Source of the DNA: Alphaproteobacteria bacterium
Lineage (GTDB): Bacteria > Pseudomonadota > Alphaproteobacteria > Rs-D84
Direction of reading: 5' to 3'
Assembly (NCBI GenBank): GCA_017451625.1
Contig: JAFTNY010000001.1
Span: 1 to 54,934 of the forward strand
DNA: 54,934 nt
Made by a program: the position numbers and the translations under genes. Positions 2,510 to 47,756 of this stretch are shown piece after piece. Positions within the stretch are counted from its first letter, which is position 1, and each line of letters opens with the position of its first letter. The notes under the pieces were generated by a model. The model had not been told where the DNA came from, did no database searches, and was given only the letters and a program-made list of their open reading frames with translations.

Positions 2510-2535
2510 CTTTAAAAAAGAAATACATAAAACAG

Positions 2536-2562
2536 TGGATGCCGGCCTGCGCCGGTATGACG
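2536..2562 (-). repeat. Solo CGTC-tagged REP-like palindrome, same family as the repeats flanking the GIY-YIG gene
   Basis: Minus strand CGTCATACCG-GCGCAGGC-CGGCATCCA, compared with TGTCATTCCC-GCGCAGGC-GGGAATAGG at 46631. The GTCAT tag and 8-nt centre are identical and the stem changes are partly compensatory. Confidence 0.7.
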
Positions 2563-2617: not shown

Positions 2618-5600
2618 TTATTCCATGCTGGTTGAAATCACATCGCCGTATGTGCCGACTTCGTCGCCACCGATAAAGCAACGGATTTTCGAACCGACGT
2701 TGTTCATAAATTCGTCGATTGCTGCACGTTCGGCCGAATCCAGATTTGCCTGTTGGATACTGTCGGTGATTGTGTACCCCAGTATACCACCAGCAATCGC
2801 ACCAACACCGGCACCGATGCCTGCGGCTGCGCCTGTGCTTAAGCCCTTTTTATCTGTGGTGGTTGTATCACCATTTTCAACCAACTGTCTGCAGACATTT
2901 GCCAGTTTTTCAATTTCTTTGTTGGCTTTGTTTTTTGCTTCGGATTTGGCCGCACTTTCGTTCCAATCAGACTGACAAATCATAACAACATTGCCTTTCT
3001 CGTTTCTCGATTCCACCTTTGGACATTCGATCGTTGTCTGGGCGGCGGCATTGATTGCTTCGCGCGCAGATGCAATATTTGCCGTTGCAGTCTTGCCAGA
3101 ATCCATGTTTTCTACGGCAGTAATCAAACTGTTGCCATAGAATTGTGCATTTTGACCGTTGGATTCGTAGGTATATGCAGATGCCAAACTGGTGCAACGT
3201 TCTGCCGTCATTGTGGACGCCTTTTTAGAATCCTTGCCGATACCGGTCAGACCGCTGAATACATCGCCCTTTTGGATGCCTGCGCCCATATATGCGCCAC
3301 CGGCACCACCGCCCAATGCACCCAGTGCGGTCATCCAACCCTTAATCTTGGGCTGGGATGCCTTGGCATCGGCACGTGCATCTGCGCCGGCCGCGTTGGC
3401 CAATTCTTCCAACTTATCATTTGAAATCCATGAACCACATGTGAACGCGTCACCGGCCGCAAAGTATGCAACCGCCCAATCTGCGCCATTGTTAATCGCG
3501 TCTTGGATGCGCTTGTCATCAGAATGCAATGACACGCGTACACGACAGAACGAACCGTACAGGTCGTTGCTGGCCACGAATTGATTTGGTTTCAAACCGG
3601 CCACACTGTAGTTTGTTGGGACCTTGTTCGAACGCAGTTTTGCCCACATAAATGTAGAACCCATATCTTTGTTGCCCAAAATGCCACCGGCGTTGGACGA
3701 CATACACATATTCTGTTGCTGGGTCAATTTGGCATTGTATTTAGCCTGCGCTTCGATTTCCAAATCGTAAATCAAGTCTTTGAACAATGTGCTGGCCGCC
3801 TGTGTTTCAATGTATGTTGCATATGAAATCTTGACCGGTTGGTCATACACTGCGCCAGACGCATCAACGGTATAGCACACGCCTTGGTCGCCCTTGGCAT
3901 TTGTGCACAGGTCGTTTCCGTTTTCATCGACGGCCTGAACCTGTTCCATGGACAATTCCATATCAGATGTGCCACCTGCATCAATCCAGTCAGAACGGAC
4001 AGAACCAGTCCCCCAAGATGATGCCGATGAATTATTTGCGATTTTCAGTTTGTTTGTTTCAATCGCCAAGTGTTCAGAACACACATCTGCGTTTTTAACC
4101 GTATCAACACACAATCCCAATACGATTGTGTAATCCAGAACACCACCAACCTTGTTCATGGATTTATCAAACGCTGTGTCGCCAGAATTGGTCAGAGACG
4201 AATAGATGTCTGTACGATTGCGATAGCAATTTACATAATCCGAACCACACATTGACTTTACACAACTGGTTGCGACAGATTGACACTGCTTTTTCATCTT
4301 GGCAATGGCGGCATCGCTGTAATTATTCGCCAATGATGCATTTAACGATGCAATAACGCCGATTGGATCAGATTCTGCGCCGTCATCATATTCTGGGAAC
4401 AGTGTATCGAACGCATCTGCATCGATATAAGAATATGCATATGTGCCGGTCGCATTTGGATTCTGGGCGGCATATTTACAATTTGCATCAGTGTTGATTA
4501 CAGATGCGCACCCTGTCTTGATTTCATTGCGTGTGTAATCGTTGTTGATTGATTTGTCAGATGCACCAAATACCTGAGAATAACAGGCCGCACCCGAGCC
4601 ACCACCACAGACACGCATTGCGCACGCCTTGATTGTATCAACACATTTTTCTTTGGCGCGTGTATCAAATTTGTTAACCAAATCGGTGATTTTTGCACGC
4701 ATACCTGAATTCATGCGGGCAGAATACGCCAAATCATAGACTTCTTCTTGGTTGTCTTCGTCGCGCAGTTGGGACGATGTTGGCATTTGACCGTCGCCGA
4801 TAAAGGTTGCATAGCAATATTTATTGGAGCCAACCGTATCCAAACAAGAATTTTTGATATAGGACGAAATGTTCGATTTGCTGATAATCGCCGTTGCATC
4901 GGCAACCGCGGTAATATCTGTGCCGTTTGTAATGGCATCAACAATGTTTACCGTTTCAGCAGTCGCATTTTCATAGCACTTGTACGGATTTGCAGTACAT
5001 GCATTCAAAATACATTGGTCAACCACCTTGTAGCAGGTTGAAACCGCATTTACCGCGGCAAGGGCCGCCCCTTCGGCAATCATTTCGCCAATACGGCTGG
5101 ACGCGGATGGCGTTGCCGTTGTTGACGCGGTGCCGAACAGTTCAATTAAACCTTCGCTTTGGCAGCGGGCCAATGTGGAATCACAGAATACGCGCTGCTT
5201 TTTAAATTCAGAATTTGTTGTACACAATTCAAAGTCTGCGCCGCAAACACTGTCTTTGCGCAAACATGATGAATAACGACGAACACAGGACGATGTGTCG
5301 TATTTGTTTTCAATCGCCGCGGCAGAAATCATCTGGCCCAAGACACTGCCGTCTGTGGGGTATGTGTAATCTGTGATTTCGCCGTATGAATTTTTCGTTG
5401 CAACGTTAGACAATGCCGACACAGTCGATGTACCAAACAAACTGGACACGCCGGCCGATGAACATTGGGCCAATGTACTTAAACACTGGGGCATTTTGGC
5501 GTGAAACAGAACCTTGGTCGTGCATTCTTCGAAATTTGCACCACAGGCATCGCCACCCTTGATACACTGGGTATAGGCATCAATGCATTCGGCATTTGCC

Positions 5601-43688: not shown

Positions 43689-44350
43689 TTAACCACCCCT
43701 GATGCCTGTGCCACTGCAATGGATGCCGCCAATTCGGCACGCAATATTGTTCGCCCCAATGATATTCCATGTGCGCCAGATGCATCCAACGCAGAAAATT
43801 CAGAATCTGAAAAGCCACCTTCGGGTCCGACCAAGACAGTCGTTGTACCGGTGGGAATTTCGGACGTGGTGGCACCGTATGCAGCGCGTTCATCTGCAAA
43901 AACAACGTTTGACAAATCCAATTCTGAAAAACGAACCGGCGGTAATATCACAGGAACCGTATTACGATTGGATTGTTCGGACGCTTCGATTACTATTTTT
44001 TTCATACGTTCCCAATTAATGTGGTGCGCGGTTGTGCGTTCGGTTATTACCGGCTGAAACTTTGCAACACCCATTTGGGTCGCCATGTTTAGTAAATCAT
44101 CGGTACGCTTAATCGGTGCAAACATTAATGTAATTTGGCCAGATGGGTCTGGGTGTGCGGTCTGCGCCCCAACAACCAATGTGCGACCATCATCAGATAA
44201 ATTTGCCGAATATTCATTACCGTCGCCAAAAACCAAACATTGGGTCGTGCGCATAACGCGCGTCAGATAGTGCGCAACATCACGCGCAACTGGAATCTGG
44301 GTGCCGGTGGCGATGTGTGGCCCGACAAAAATTCGCGGAATATTTTTCAT
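43685..44350 (-). CDS. rsmE: 16S rRNA m3U1498 methyltransferase
   Basis: HYLTRVMR, EASEQS, VGPEGGFS and LGRTILRAE. Confidence 0.95.
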   Translation of the reverse strand: MKNIPRIFVGPHIATGTQIPVARDVAHYLTRVMRTTQCLVFGDGNEYSANLSDDGRTLVVGAQTAHPDPSGQITLMFAPIKRTDDLLNMATQMGVAKFQPVITERTTAHHINWERMKKIVIEASEQSNRNTVPVILPPVRFSELDLSNVVFADERAAYGATTSEIPTGTTTVLVGPEGGFSDSEFSALDASGAHGISLGRTILRAELAASIAVAQASGVVK

Positions 44351-44405
44351 AAATTCTTATTTCCTGATTTATAAATTGTCTTTTTTCTGGTATAATCTTA
44401 ACACC

Positions 44406-46616
44406 ATGGCAGTGAAATTCAACATTTTATCGGCATCAGGCAAAGGGAAAGGTCTGAACATATTCCGTTCATCAGCGTACAAGGAACATGAACAGACACC
44501 ATTGGCGCGTGAATTTTGGTCTATTCGATGGGCGATTATTGTATGGCTGATTGGTGCACTGATGTTCGCGTGTGCGTTCCCGATTGAACATATTTGGCGG
44601 TACGGTTGGTCGCCGGCCAGTAAACAGTGGCTGATAATATACCTGCAAAATATGCTGATGTCAGGTGGGATTTCTGTGCTGGCCGAAGTTCCGTCGTGGA
44701 TTGCGCGATGTGTGATGCGGCCTGATATTCCATGTATAACACCATTGTTGCCGATTATTGGTTATTATTTTCTGTCAGATGGGACAATGTCAGACGAATT
44801 TAATCCACACAGCAAAGATAAGTTTGATGAAAAATCTTCGAACAAGGCATCCAAGACCGACATTGAAAAAATGGGGTTGTTAAAGGGCTTTATGATGGTG
44901 CTGGGGTACTTTAAGAAAAAGCCGTTGATGATGAACGAATGCCTGTCAACGTTGTGTGTCGCGCCCCCAGGGACCGGTAAAACCCAAGGTGTGGTTCTGC
45001 CGACGATTTTTGAATGCAACAACGTGTCGATGATTATTAACGACCCAAAGCCGGAACTGAAACAAAAATCTTCGGCGTATCGTGCGACCATTGGGCCTGT
45101 GTTCATTATGAACTGGGCAGGACAGGACGATCCGGCACGCGGAATTTACTATCCATCGTGGAATCCACTGTCCCCAGGACATGTGCCGTTTAATACCGAA
45201 GAACGCGACCTGTACGTTGATTCGATTGCGAATACACTGATACCAGACCGGTCATCTTCGTCGGCCGACCCGCACTGGACAATCACAGGGCGCGCCGCAT
45301 TAACAGGATTTATTCAATATATTATTTCCAAGGTTGAACGCGCCAAGGCCGATGATTATTTCTATGCCCGTATGTCGAACGGTACATTTAATGCCGAAGA
45401 TGCGGCGGTGTTGGGGGATTACTATCTGTCGATGGCATCTGATCCGAACGCGTATGCGGCGCACGCATTGCTGCAACGTGGGGAATTGAACGCAATGAAC
45501 TATGTCCATGTTGGTACGTGGGAAAATATCCCAGATGCATGGCGTGGACGCGAGGCATCACTGTCGATGATTCTGGACTGGTTAAACGCATCACAAATCG
45601 CGATTGCCGAAGATATTGAAAATCGTCGCCGCCAAGGAGACCAAATGGTCATGATGGCCGATCCAACCAAAGACATGTTTATGAAAGCCGTAGACGAGGC
45701 ACGCCGATACGCATATTCGCATCGTGCGGTCCAAGAACTGACCCAGTTGGCCAGTACACCTGACAAAGAACGTGGTTCTATTATGTCGACGGCGTTGTCT
45801 GGGCTGAATATATTCCGTAATGCCGCGGTGCGCAACCGTACCAGCCATTCAGACTTTCACTTTTCTGACCTGCGCGGAATGATTGACCCACGCGACGGCA
45901 AGATGAAGCCGGTGACGGTGTACCTGTCGATTAATATGGTGGATGCACAGGCATTGAATCCGATTACCGCAATCTTTATCGAATTGATGTCTAATTTCTT
46001 GCTGGCAAACAAACCCGAAGAATACAGAAACGGCGAAAAATTGGGGCCGTATCCGGTGCTGTTCGTTATGGACGAAATGCCCAAGATGCAGAAACTGCGC
46101 GCGGTTATCGAAGGGCCAGATTTGGGACGTGGTCAATCTATCTCTTATCTGATTATCGGACAGGATTTACACCAGATTGCCGAAAAATATGGTGCAGATG
46201 CCGCTGCGACCATTATTTCAACCACCGCGGCCAAGGTGGTGCTGCGCCAGAATGACCCAGATACTGCGGAACGCTTTTCCAAAATGATGGGTTATAAAAT
46301 GAAAAAGAAAATGGTCAAGGGGCCAGACGGCAAAGAAAAAGAAGAAACCAGTCAGGATTTTCTGTATTCAACAATGGATATTTTAAAACTGGATCCAAAG
46401 AAACAGTTGGTAATATTCCAAGGTTGGTATCACCGACCAATCGAGGCCGACCATCAGCAGGCATGGCAAGACCCACGATTACTGGGATTTATGAATATGG
46501 GTGAATGTGCGCCACTGCCTGAATTTTTGGTGCCGGCACATCATCGTGCATTGGGTTATTCGGGTACACCACGAATTTACGACCCACAGACCAAGCAGGT
46601 TAAAGAATTGGCATAA
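44406..46616 (+). CDS. virD4: VirD4/TraG type IV coupling protein
   Basis: N-terminal TMs, Walker A APPGTGKT, INDPKPEL, WNPL, Walker B VMDEMP and GRGQSISYLIIGQDLHQI. Confidence 0.9.
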   Translation: MAVKFNILSASGKGKGLNIFRSSAYKEHEQTPLAREFWSIRWAIIVWLIGALMFACAFPIEHIWRYGWSPASKQWLIIYLQNMLMSGGISVLAEVPSWIARCVMRPDIPCITPLLPIIGYYFLSDGTMSDEFNPHSKDKFDEKSSNKASKTDIEKMGLLKGFMMVLGYFKKKPLMMNECLSTLCVAPPGTGKTQGVVLPTIFECNNVSMIINDPKPELKQKSSAYRATIGPVFIMNWAGQDDPARGIYYPSWNPLSPGHVPFNTEERDLYVDSIANTLIPDRSSSSADPHWTITGRAALTGFIQYIISKVERAKADDYFYARMSNGTFNAEDAAVLGDYYLSMASDPNAYAAHALLQRGELNAMNYVHVGTWENIPDAWRGREASLSMILDWLNASQIAIAEDIENRRRQGDQMVMMADPTKDMFMKAVDEARRYAYSHRAVQELTQLASTPDKERGSIMSTALSGLNIFRNAAVRNRTSHSDFHFSDLRGMIDPRDGKMKPVTVYLSINMVDAQALNPITAIFIELMSNFLLANKPEEYRNGEKLGPYPVLFVMDEMPKMQKLRAVIEGPDLGRGQSISYLIIGQDLHQIAEKYGADAAATIISTTAAKVVLRQNDPDTAERFSKMMGYKMKKKMVKGPDGKEKEETSQDFLYSTMDILKLDPKKQLVIFQGWYHRPIEADHQQAWQDPRLLGFMNMGECAPLPEFLVPAHHRALGYSGTPRIYDPQTKQVKELA

Positions 46617-46628
46617 AAAAGACCGCGT

Positions 46629-46658
46629 TTTGTCATTCCCGCGCAGGCGGGAATAGGG
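46629..46658 (+). repeat. Left inverted repeat (REP/dRS3-like palindrome)
   Basis: TTTGTCATTCCCGCGCAGGCGGGAATAGGG; contains ATTCCC-N8-GGGAAT. Confidence 0.9.
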
Positions 46659-46659
46659 A

Positions 46660-46989
46660 CTATGCTGTTTCTTTGTTTTTCCAAAATTCTATGTTTTTCT
46701 CTAAATCGTCTGCCAAATCAATCCAATTTGGATTCATTGTTTCTATCAGGCGATATTTCCACGCACGTTTCCATTTCTTTAACTGTTTTTCACGTGCGAT
46801 TGCATTATCTACATATTTGTAATATTCAAAATAACCCAATTTGTGAATATTGTGTTCTTTGGTATAACCTTCATCTAATCCCATTTTGTGTTCGTACATT
46901 CGGCGTTCAAGGTTGTTTGTTATACCAATGTATGTTCCTTTGGCACGTTCATCAAATAATATATAAACCCAGAAATTATAATCTTTCAT
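46660..46989 (-). CDS. Small stand-alone GIY-YIG nuclease
   Basis: WVYIL...TYIGITNNLERRMYEHK...AIAREKQLKKWKRAWKYRLIE..NPNW; 109 aa from ATG 46989 (alternative ATG 47007). Confidence 0.9.
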   Translation of the reverse strand: MKDYNFWVYILFDERAKGTYIGITNNLERRMYEHKMGLDEGYTKEHNIHKLGYFEYYKYVDNAIAREKQLKKWKRAWKYRLIETMNPNWIDLADDLEKNIEFWKNKETA

Positions 46990-46998
46990 AACGCTAAA

Positions 46999-47027
46999 AT
47001 TGTACAATGGGACATTTATATTTTCAA
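46999..47027 (-). promoter_or_regulatory. Promoter of the GIY-YIG gene inside the right IR
   Basis: TTGAAA (47022-47027), 17 nt, TACAAT (46999-47004), 9 nt, ATG. Confidence 0.7.
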
Positions 47028-47029
47028 GA

Positions 47030-47059
47030 CCCTATTCCCGCCTGCGCGGGAATGACAAA
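47030..47059 (-). repeat. Right inverted repeat (REP/dRS3-like palindrome)
   Basis: CCCTATTCCCGCCTGCGCGGGAATGACAAA is the exact reverse complement of 46629-46658. Confidence 0.9.
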
Positions 47060-47207
47060 GTTTATTTTTTTAGTTTTACAACAAGACAGTCTTCTACTTA
47101 TAATTTTTGCGGGGGTAGGATGCAGAAGTGATAATTTTTACGCAGACACAAAGATAAATTATTGTTCTCGATTCTTTGTAAAAAAATCCCGCCGGATGGC
47201 GGTTGTT

Positions 47208-47756
47208 TTATTTCGCAGGCGCGACGATAATCGATTTTGTTCGTTCGTCTGGCTTGGATTTAGATTCCAATGCACCACGATCGCCGATAATTTCCAAAAT
47301 GCGTGCAAATAATTCGGGAACTGCGTCTTTGCCGCGGGCCAGAACTTTTTTTGACCCCTTGGTCATAACAGATACTTTGACCTTGTTGCCTTCGGCCAAA
47401 AATTCCAGCACCTTTTTCATTTTGATGTTCAGGTCGTTTTCTTCGATAAACGGTTTGACCCAAACTTCTTTCATTTCGATACTTTTTTGCTTTTTACGTG
47501 CCTCGGACGCGCGTTTCTTTTGTTCGTACTTGAATTTGCCATAGTCCATAATTTTAACAATTGGCGTTTGACCATTGGCGTTGATTTCAACCAAATCCAG
47601 CCCTGCGTCCATTGCCATCTGCAGCGCGTTCGATGTTGGCATAATGCCCAGATTCTGGCCATCAGACGAGATTACTTGAACCGTCTTGGCGAAAATTTTA
47701 TTGTTCATACGTGGACCTGCGTCACGACGATTATCACGATTATTTAAAGGTTTAAT
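47208..47756 (-). CDS. infC: Translation initiation factor IF-3 with ATT start
   Basis: GLDLVEI, VKIMDYGKFKYEQKK, IEENDLNIK and FLAEGNKVKV. The in-frame ATT at 47756 is 6 nt after SD GGAG and adds IKPLNNRDNRRDAGPR. Confidence 0.95.
   Translation of the reverse strand: MKPLNNRDNRRDAGPRMNNKIFAKTVQVISSDGQNLGIMPTSNALQMAMDAGLDLVEINANGQTPIVKIMDYGKFKYEQKKRASEARKKQKSIEMKEVWVKPFIEENDLNIKMKKVLEFLAEGNKVKVSVMTKGSKKVLARGKDAVPELFARILEIIGDRGALESKSKPDERTKSIIVAPAK

Follow-up and report, generated by a model that had tools for sequence, protein, structure and literature searches.

The stretch analysed here comprises positions 1 to 54,934 of contig JAFTNY010000001.1 of an alphaproteobacterium of the Rs-D84 lineage; it is 54,934 nucleotides (nt) long and called the window throughout. 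Between the gene of a VirD4-type coupling protein and infC it carries a 431-bp unit (46629-47059), in which two 30-nt inverted repeat arms, at 46629-46658 (+) and 47030-47059 (-), enclose an open reading frame for a 109-residue GIY-YIG protein. Judged by its sequence features, this unit is very probably an SRM-ssn-SRM cassette, i.e. the gene of an Ssn nuclease together with its cognate hairpins. The pairing of a GIY-YIG nuclease with such hairpins is already published (Chenal et al., Nat Commun, March 2025; PMC11893778, of which the main text is meant wherever it is cited), and the window locus is a further member of that system with a variant hairpin tail. The features referred to below are as follows.

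46629-46658, + strand: SRM 3' of the gene, TTTGTC-ATTCCCGC-GCAG-GCGGGAAT-AGGG, with the hairpin at 46635-46654
46660-46989 (including the stop codon), - strand: predicted ssn gene, 109-aa single-domain GIY-YIG nuclease, Pfam GIY-YIG 2.5e-16
46999-47027, - strand: promoter-like site TTGAAA-17-TACAAT, 10 of 12 positions matched, 9 nt to the ATG
47030-47059, - strand: SRM 5' of the gene, identical over all 30 nt to the 3' SRM when read on the - strand; hairpin at 47034-47053
46615-47180, no strand assigned: strain-variable segment of 566 bp, made up of the cassette (431 bp) with 14 bp toward virD4 and 121 bp toward infC

Repeat arms and nuclease gene

The arms (TTTGTCATTCCCGCGCAGGCGGGAATAGGG) are reverse complements of each other without a mismatch over 30 nt, the inverted repeat of the cassette reaches 33 nt at 97% identity, and no such pair was obtained in 100 shuffles of the sequence. 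Each arm folds into a stem of 8 bp closed by a loop of 4 nt, ATTCCCGC-GCAG-GCGGGAAT, with an energy of about -9 to -10 kcal/mol as single-stranded DNA (ssDNA; z about -3). Three parts of each arm break its symmetry, namely the TGTC tag, the loop and the AGGG tail, and from these the two arms can be read as inverted, with their tags outward. They lie 1 nt past the stop codon (46659) on one side and 40 nt ahead of the start codon on the other, so that either flank of the gene has a tagged hairpin within a distance of 500 bp. The pattern ATTCCC-N8-GGGAAT occurs at only two sites in the 54.9-kb window, and both are cassette arms. A scan of 46300-47400 against Rfam gave no meaningful match.

In a preliminary description of this DNA, exact 30-bp arms had been reported around a 109-aa GIY-YIG frame, with an AT-rich interior and with virD4 and infC as flanks, lacking a transposase or a target-site duplication. 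All of this holds. The G+C content is 35.5% in the cassette and 32.1% in the gene versus 45.4% in the window, no transposase gene was found at the cassette, and target-site duplications were detected neither there nor at five other cassettes or 34 gene-less hairpin pairs (doublets, described below). The arms had also been described as hairpins with outward tags, which is correct, but the stem has 8 bp with a 4-nt loop rather than 6 bp with 8 nt. A promoter belonging to the gene had been proposed as well: TTGAAA-17-TACAAT-9-ATG is present, and TTGAAA directly after the hairpin tail is kept in five of six related cassettes, but the match taken alone is not above chance in so AT-rich a stretch. 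No Shine-Dalgarno sequence is visible ahead of the ssn ATG, and the 9-nt spacing between promoter-like site and ATG suggests that the ssn mRNA would be leaderless or nearly so.

The Ssn family comprises single-domain GIY-YIG nucleases that act on ssDNA, binding it and cutting next to hairpin repeats termed NTS/SRM; these repeats are a superset of Neisseria dRS3 and flank ssn genes across many phyla (PMC11893778). One member, SsnA of Neisseria meningitidis, is a 94-aa single-domain GIY-YIG protein of class cd10448 (GIY-YIG_unchar_3) that binds the oriented NTS repeat CGTCATTCCCGCGMAVGCGGGAATCYRG as ssDNA only and cuts a few nt upstream of the NTS, on the NTS-bearing strand only; mutating either catalytic Tyr or the Glu abolishes cleavage (PMC11893778). 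Ssn enzymes from Neisseria and from Wolbachia act on the hairpin repeat cognate to each, binding and cleaving it in ssDNA only, and the family's sole role demonstrated in vivo comes from Neisseria, where the system restricts incoming ssDNA during transformation (PMC11893778). A 2026 preprint uses 'SsnA-associated NTS repeats' as a benchmark repeat class.

The protein encoded in the window agrees with this family in size, domain content and predicted active site. Pfam GIY-YIG covers residues 6-79, with otherwise one weak overlapping match to the related model T5orf172, and with a single GIY-YIG domain in 109 aa the protein stays within the 150 aa allowed for an Ssn protein. The comparison sequence for SsnA was the N. 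gonorrhoeae orthologue (NZ_CP119142.1; L113 1474-1773, where L numbers are our handles for loci) and not the N. meningitidis reference CAX49033.1; the orthologue has 94 codons, and its numbering reproduces Y6, Y17 and E64 of PMC11893778. The window protein aligns gaplessly to 89 of the 94 residues of this orthologue at 46% identity, scoring 84 bits (pairwise E 8e-28), and tblastn against 7.3 Gb gave E 6e-18, which lies inside a family threshold of E < 1e-10 over at least 75% of the length. The predicted catalytic residues Y9, Y20, R30, H34, E67 and N86 stand in columns invariant among 26 homologues, and Y9, Y20 and E67 align gaplessly with the catalytic Tyr, Tyr and Glu of SsnA (Y6, Y17 and E64).

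An AlphaFold model of the protein (confidence score pLDDT 85) consists of the GIY-YIG core and one C-terminal helix, its best fold matches in the PDB being the UPF0213 protein 1ZG2 and Slx1. Fold searching was needed, as a sequence search of the PDB with the window protein returned no match; no Ssn structure was found by sequence or fold in the PDB copy searched, no NCBIfam model matches the protein, and no homologue is present in 50,697 phage records. At the gonococcal locus (L113, NZ_CP119142.1 1880219-1883485), the source is a 2.17-Mb N. gonorrhoeae chromosome catalogued as 'plasmid' in PLSDB, and the ssnA orthologue, which has ATT/ATA at the expected start codon, is missing from the incomplete PLSDB gene table.

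Hairpins beside homologous genes and the variant tail

The preliminary description had proposed to test homologues of the gene for the palindrome, and the association is borne out in a sample of 80 homologue-encoding loci from species-representative genomes, covering Alphaproteobacteria, Gammaproteobacteria, Bacteroidota, Chloroflexota, Planctomycetota, Patescibacteria, Acidobacteriota and others. GTC-tagged hairpins occur at 5.4 per kb in the zone adjoining the gene (up to about 150-190 nt from it), whereas the background, taken at distances above 400 nt, has 0.26 per kb, an enrichment of about 20-fold. At least one such hairpin lies beside the gene in 67 of the 80 loci, hairpins stand on both sides in 49, and the tags point outward on both sides in 47; upstream hairpins are mostly forward (55 forward, 10 reverse), downstream ones mostly reverse (60 reverse, 21 forward). 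These figures agree with PMC11893778, where an SRM is found near the gene in 71% of Ssn homologues and on both sides in 42%. The stem sequence varies among loci while complementarity is kept. Compensatory C-G to T-A changes are visible in alignment A2, which was not selected for hairpins, and the left and right hairpins of one cassette usually match each other.

We note that at many Bacteroidota and other loci (among them L026, L038, L054 and L058) the upstream hairpin is of the ATTCCnGC type with a 4-nt loop and the downstream hairpin belongs to another stem family with a 5-nt loop, e.g. ATCCTGAA-CTTGA; the ends of a cassette therefore need not share a repeat type.

The window repeat agrees with the published NTS consensus at 25 of 28 positions. 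It fits the full SRM string, HGTCWY..RNCYNB, up to the end of the palindrome, where its tail reads A-G-G-G versus the required C-Y. As AGGG takes the place of C-Y-R-G, the published search string misses the window hairpins; variants of the SRM (NTSvar) were expected by Chenal et al. (PMC11893778). Among the hairpins of the 80 loci the CCA tail is found in 97 copies, and the AGG tail is confined to the protein clade of the window, formed by metagenome-assembled genomes of gut Alphaproteobacteria at 72% identity or more.

A relation to dRS3 and tagged REP-type repeats, as first recognised in the preliminary description, is confirmed by comparison with the CGTC-tagged REPs that Di Nocera et al. 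2013 (PMC3733652) described mostly from Alphaproteobacteria: these carry a (C/T)GTC tag and fold into a stem of 8 bp, which starts with AT, closed by a loop of 4 nt. Neisseria dRS3 and Rickettsia RPE-6 belong to the CGTC-1 REPs of that study, in which CGTC-tagged REPs seem to have no transposase dedicated to them (PMC3733652). The question of their enzyme, standing since 2013, was answered by the GIY-YIG/hairpin pairing published in 2025. The window hairpins share the tag, the 8-bp AT-stem, the 4-nt loop and the ATTCCC-N8-GGGAAT core of CGTC-1/dRS3; they lack its CCA-like tail, and in place of its many copies per genome the 55 kb of the window contain two AGG-tailed copies plus one divergent CCA-tailed solo.

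This solo hairpin, CGTCATACCGGCGCAGGCCGGCATCCAC at 2535-2562 (-), agrees with the published SRM string over its whole length, the CCA-type tail among the matching parts. One position of its stem is mismatched. It sits between genes, directly ahead of a terminator-like hairpin, and differs in sequence type from the two gene-flanking copies.

Variable occupancy, element ends and gene-less copies

Occupancy of the virD4-infC interval varies among close relatives. Among 17 contigs with an IF3 (the infC product) identical to that of the window, three, from ERZ28654584, ERZ27256817 and GCA_017935465.1, carry the cassette and are 99.8-100% identical to the window, and 14 lack it, so that the locus is not fixed, in agreement with a comparison proposed in the preliminary description. 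The empty alleles have 45-60 bp of unrelated spacer in place of the 566-bp segment, with no hairpin inside, and the flanking DNA of empty and filled strains diverges by 2-3%. The empty spacers of L081, L082, L086 and L090 (e.g. L081 4527-4568) contain a variable number of CACTAAC-like units, CCACTAACACTAACCACTAA, and VirD4 of the empty alleles has one residue more (737 aa versus 736) and an altered C-terminal end. The stretch 47075-47212 (+) starts within the strain-variable 121 bp with a strong promoter-like site, TTTACA-18-TATAAT (11 of 12 positions matched), and the bidirectional infC terminator follows about 85 nt further on. An RNA of about 100 nt could arise here, opposite no annotated feature; its fold (z -0.48) is no better than shuffled.

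Cassettes 77-86% identical to that of the window occur elsewhere in related gut Alphaproteobacteria, in at least five other gene contexts, including gidA...ompH, rpmJ-virB3-virB4 and a site upstream of dedA-rbfA-lepA. The cassette is a discrete unit: the spacer between virD4 and infC has gained or lost it, and it is found at other sites in these bacteria. In every context the similarity runs from T(T/C)TGTC to GACAA(A/T), beyond which the flanks are unrelated and mostly A/T-rich. Similarity therefore ends 2-3 nt beyond the outer side of the TGTC tag, about where SsnA cuts relative to its motif, and we infer by analogy that the ends of the element may coincide with the cleavage position of its own nuclease. 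In protein cluster P0010 (L093-L102), one cassette with one 5' flank is joined to two alternative 3' flanks, which part exactly after GACAA.

Several further observations concern these contexts. Most contigs with a P0010 cassette are shorter than 2 kb and several stop at the hairpin, which is what a repeat that interrupts assembly should produce. As a possible empty counterpart of the L091 cassette the window proved uninformative, since ompH is common to both (79% identity) but the neighbouring genes differ. At L001, arrays of the 3'-type hairpin (TTTCCCTATTCCTGCC..GGAATGACAAG) adjoin the cassette at 2300-2400 and 2940-3040, the downstream array with a spacing of about 50 bp, and resemble the mosaic repeat clusters of Neisseria. 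Two cassette contexts adjoin type IV secretion genes, namely virD4 (window 44301-46616) and virB3-virB4 (L111 1187-3124). Type IV secretion systems are machines that handle ssDNA; with so few contexts, the adjacency could be a coincidence.

Hairpins of the AGGG type also occur without the gene. A metagenome scan for this motif gave at least 120 loci, and the following counts apply among the matches listed: at least eight gene-containing cassettes of 422-471 bp, at least 51 gene-less outward-facing pairs of up to 200 bp, at least six outward-facing pairs of 201-390 bp and at least 61 solo copies. The gene-less doublets measure 90-200 bp. By BLAST, several of them share a 57-nt block (89-96% identity) with one type of cassette at its 3' end. 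Some 27 nt of this block lie past the hairpin (GGCTCGC-N4-GCTCGCACTGYATAG), and the other doublet end starts like the promoter side of the cassette. These doublets look like internal-deletion derivatives of cassettes, as far as their terminal sequences indicate. Only these terminal blocks are BLAST-supported; internal blocks from a cheap-gap global alignment of doublets to cassettes were fragmented and were treated as noise. A subterminal motif just inside the 3' hairpin, GGCTCGC-N4-GCTCGCACTG(C/T)ATAG, is seen in doublets L134, L145, L146, L159, L219 and L226 and in one cassette type (cassettes L223 and L233), and may be a second recognition element.

The 696-kb contig OJAR01000001.1 carries one cassette, one doublet and two single copies, all with the identical hairpin ATTCCTGC-GCAG-...-AGGG; one of the single copies has no partner in the sequence examined. 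A further assembly holds at least four related doublets on two contigs. Gene-less doublets and solos form a dispersed population in related metagenomic contigs, and a REPIN-like population of solo and paired copies, as anticipated earlier, is thereby seen at least in relatives of the window genome. The further expectation that repeat number goes with the gene also stands: OJAR01000001.1 combines a cassette with gene-less copies of its hairpin, and an SsnA homologue is encoded in 81% of genomes with more than 200 SRMs (PMC11893778). The polymorphism at virD4-infC, the sharp ends in other contexts and the gene-less doublets and solos go beyond the main text of PMC11893778.

Proposed mechanism, rival explanations and known systems

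Based on the tested Neisseria and Wolbachia homologues, the window enzyme would operate as follows. Ssn would bind its own hairpin motif only as ssDNA, and only on the strand that reads (T/C)GTC-stem-loop-stem, and would then hydrolyse the bound strand a few nt 5' of the tag. From the geometry of SsnA, cuts are predicted about 3 nt 5' of TGTC, near 46627/46628 (+) and 47060/47061 (-), i.e. one outside each cassette end and on opposite strands, since the motifs are inverted with their tags outward. For the window enzyme, both the ssDNA specificity and the cut position are inferred from what was measured on its homologues. Hydrolysis of DNA by GIY-YIG enzymes is generally held to involve no covalent intermediate; Ssn would for this reason be no transposase in the HUH sense, and rejoining would need the host.

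Certain observations weigh against the reading of the window locus as an SRM-ssn-SRM cassette of the Ssn system. Only two copies of the hairpin type of the cassette lie in 55 kb, and no repeat population is visible in this piece of the genome. The base after the palindrome is A in the window repeat, at the position where a C is the most important base for binding by Neisseria SsnA (PMC11893778), and the binding specificity of the window enzyme may therefore differ from that of SsnA. No clean empty site was found among the contigs with identical IF3. As 566 bp stand against an unrelated 45-60 bp, with flanks 2-3% apart, allelic replacement by homologous recombination would explain the virD4-infC polymorphism as well as insertion. 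Lastly, L001, L103 and L096/L099 have their cassettes at an orthologous site although the DNA is only 75-78% identical; across 22-25% divergence this means long vertical inheritance, as for RAYTs.

Several rival explanations were weighed. The hairpins may be recombination or insertion targets of other enzymes (IS110/Piv-type, or RecA acting on short homology), with the gene as a passenger and Ssn serving the host in ssDNA restriction. We regard this as somewhat unlikely, even though it would fit the Neisseria transformation phenotype (PMC11893778), the reported insertion of IS elements into REP-type repeats, including those of Neisseria (PMC3733652, citing Tobes and Pareja 2006), and the integration of Neisseria filamentous phages by a transposase of their own (work cited in PMC11893778), as well as a polymorphic segment that exceeds the cassette, as allelic replacement would produce. 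The empty virD4-infC alleles, however, hold no hairpin usable as a target, the hairpins of a cassette match each other and the gene-less copies on the same contig, suggesting a cognate pairing of protein and repeat, and the association of gene and hairpin spans many phyla. Alternatively, Ssn itself may be the mobilising enzyme, an analogue of RAYT or of the IS200/IS605 TnpA, whose cuts at the outer tags would release the element or prime its copying in ssDNA, with host repair and ligation completing the process. Such a role is unlikely in our estimate. It is consistent with the end of cassette similarity about at the cut position of SsnA, with the two 3' flanks of P0010 that start exactly at GACAA, with doublet ends that match cassette ends in several copies per genome and with the lack of target-site duplications, known also from IS200/IS605 and REPINs. 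Against it, rejoining activity is not known for GIY-YIG enzymes, neither an excision product nor a clean empty site was found at the loci compared, cassettes stay at one locus over large divergence, and restriction of transforming ssDNA is the only demonstrated in vivo role of the family (PMC11893778).

The remaining explanations carry far less weight. A free-standing homing endonuclease of the phage Seg/I-TevI kind, which would cut double-stranded DNA of the intact allele and be copied in by repair, might be suspected from the GIY-YIG domain, the small, selfish-looking AT-rich gene and its presence/absence polymorphism. We consider it very improbable and rejected it in its classical form: the protein is a single domain with no DNA-binding domain past the nuclease core of about 95 aa, whereas I-TevI/Seg enzymes, known from phages or introns, carry a separate DNA-binding domain joined to the nuclease, its nearest folds are UPF0213 and Slx1 rather than I-TevI, the phage records hold no homologue, and the tested Ssn relatives act on ssDNA only and leave double-stranded DNA uncut (PMC11893778). 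That the gene lies by chance between two ordinary terminator or REP hairpins is a negligible prospect, common as intergenic palindromes are; no such 30-mers are expected, only two copies exist in the window, and the layout recurs at homologues in many phyla, so that the shuffles and the 80-locus association led us to reject it.

The preliminary description's interpretation of the cassette is supported and is essentially right as a rediscovery of the 2025 system; the checks on homologues, copy number and locus variability, and the family biochemistry reported in PMC11893778, gave none of the outcomes it had named as speaking against it. Its idea of a RAYT-like role for a GIY-YIG nuclease gains support and had already been drawn in PMC11893778, but a spreading of the repeats by the nuclease is unproven. 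The boldest form of this idea would make SRM-ssn-SRM an autonomous transposon that moves through ssDNA, with its ends set by Ssn cleavage and the 90-200-bp doublets as its non-autonomous derivatives, which we hold to be distinctly unlikely. If true, a hydrolytic GIY-YIG nuclease together with host repair would be the engine of a new class of prokaryotic transposons, an enzyme would be supplied for CGTC-type REPs, dRS3 and some Rickettsia RPEs, and the clade with AGGG tails would form a specificity group of its own. The locus makes the question of mobility directly testable, as it offers a natural presence/absence polymorphism among almost identical strains, ends readable to a few bases, a family of doublets and a tail variant. 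A variant tail at the key binding base of SsnA could moreover help to map how very small nucleases read their targets, which is of practical interest given the proposed use of Ssn proteins as programmable ssDNA cutters.

Among known systems, Ssn/NTS is the closest (PMC11893778). The likeness extends to a single-domain GIY-YIG protein of about 100 aa, with the 46% identity to gonococcal SsnA and the Tyr-11-Tyr-47-Glu spacing, to the hairpin core GTCATTCCCGCGCAGGCGGGAAT inside the NTS consensus and to a repeat on both sides of the gene. The differences are the two copies in 55 kb versus hundreds per Neisseria genome, the tail AGGG versus C-Y-R-G, the host, here an uncultured gut alphaproteobacterium, and the tags, which point outward in the window and inward at the gonococcal locus, where the nearest NTS copies have their tags toward the gene. 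The CGTC-1 REPs (PMC3733652) are alike in the (C/T)GTC tag, the 8-bp AT-stem, the 4-nt loop, a frequent arrangement as inverted dimers and hosts that are mostly Alphaproteobacteria; no dedicated enzyme was reported for them there, and their usual tail is CCA versus AGG in the window.

Chenal et al. liken NTS-ssnA-NTS to an insertion sequence, to RAYT/REP/BIME and to IS200/IS605 (PMC11893778). With RAYT/REPIN systems the cassette shares a small enzyme gene between inverted tagged hairpins, dispersed gene-less doublets, the absence of target duplication and largely vertical inheritance. Those systems, however, rely on an HUH Y1 transposase and a GTAG tag, whereas Ssn is a predicted hydrolytic GIY-YIG enzyme with a GTC tag and no demonstrated transposition; neither an HUH/Y1 transposase nor GTAG REPs are present at the window cassette, so that architecture alone is common to both. 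IS200/IS605 elements, whose TnpA transposes them by single-strand 'peel and paste', resemble the cassette in subterminal hairpins that are recognised in ssDNA and in cleavage a few nt from the hairpin, but TnpA makes both of its end cuts on one strand and joins the DNA again, whereas the cuts by Ssn are predicted on opposite strands and a joining activity is not known. The UPF0213/YhbQ and Slx1 domains (1ZG2, 4XLG, 6SEH), minimal GIY-YIG ('URI') domains, provide the best structural matches at a similarity below detection by sequence search; Slx1 differs in that it needs Slx4 and cuts branched double-stranded DNA.

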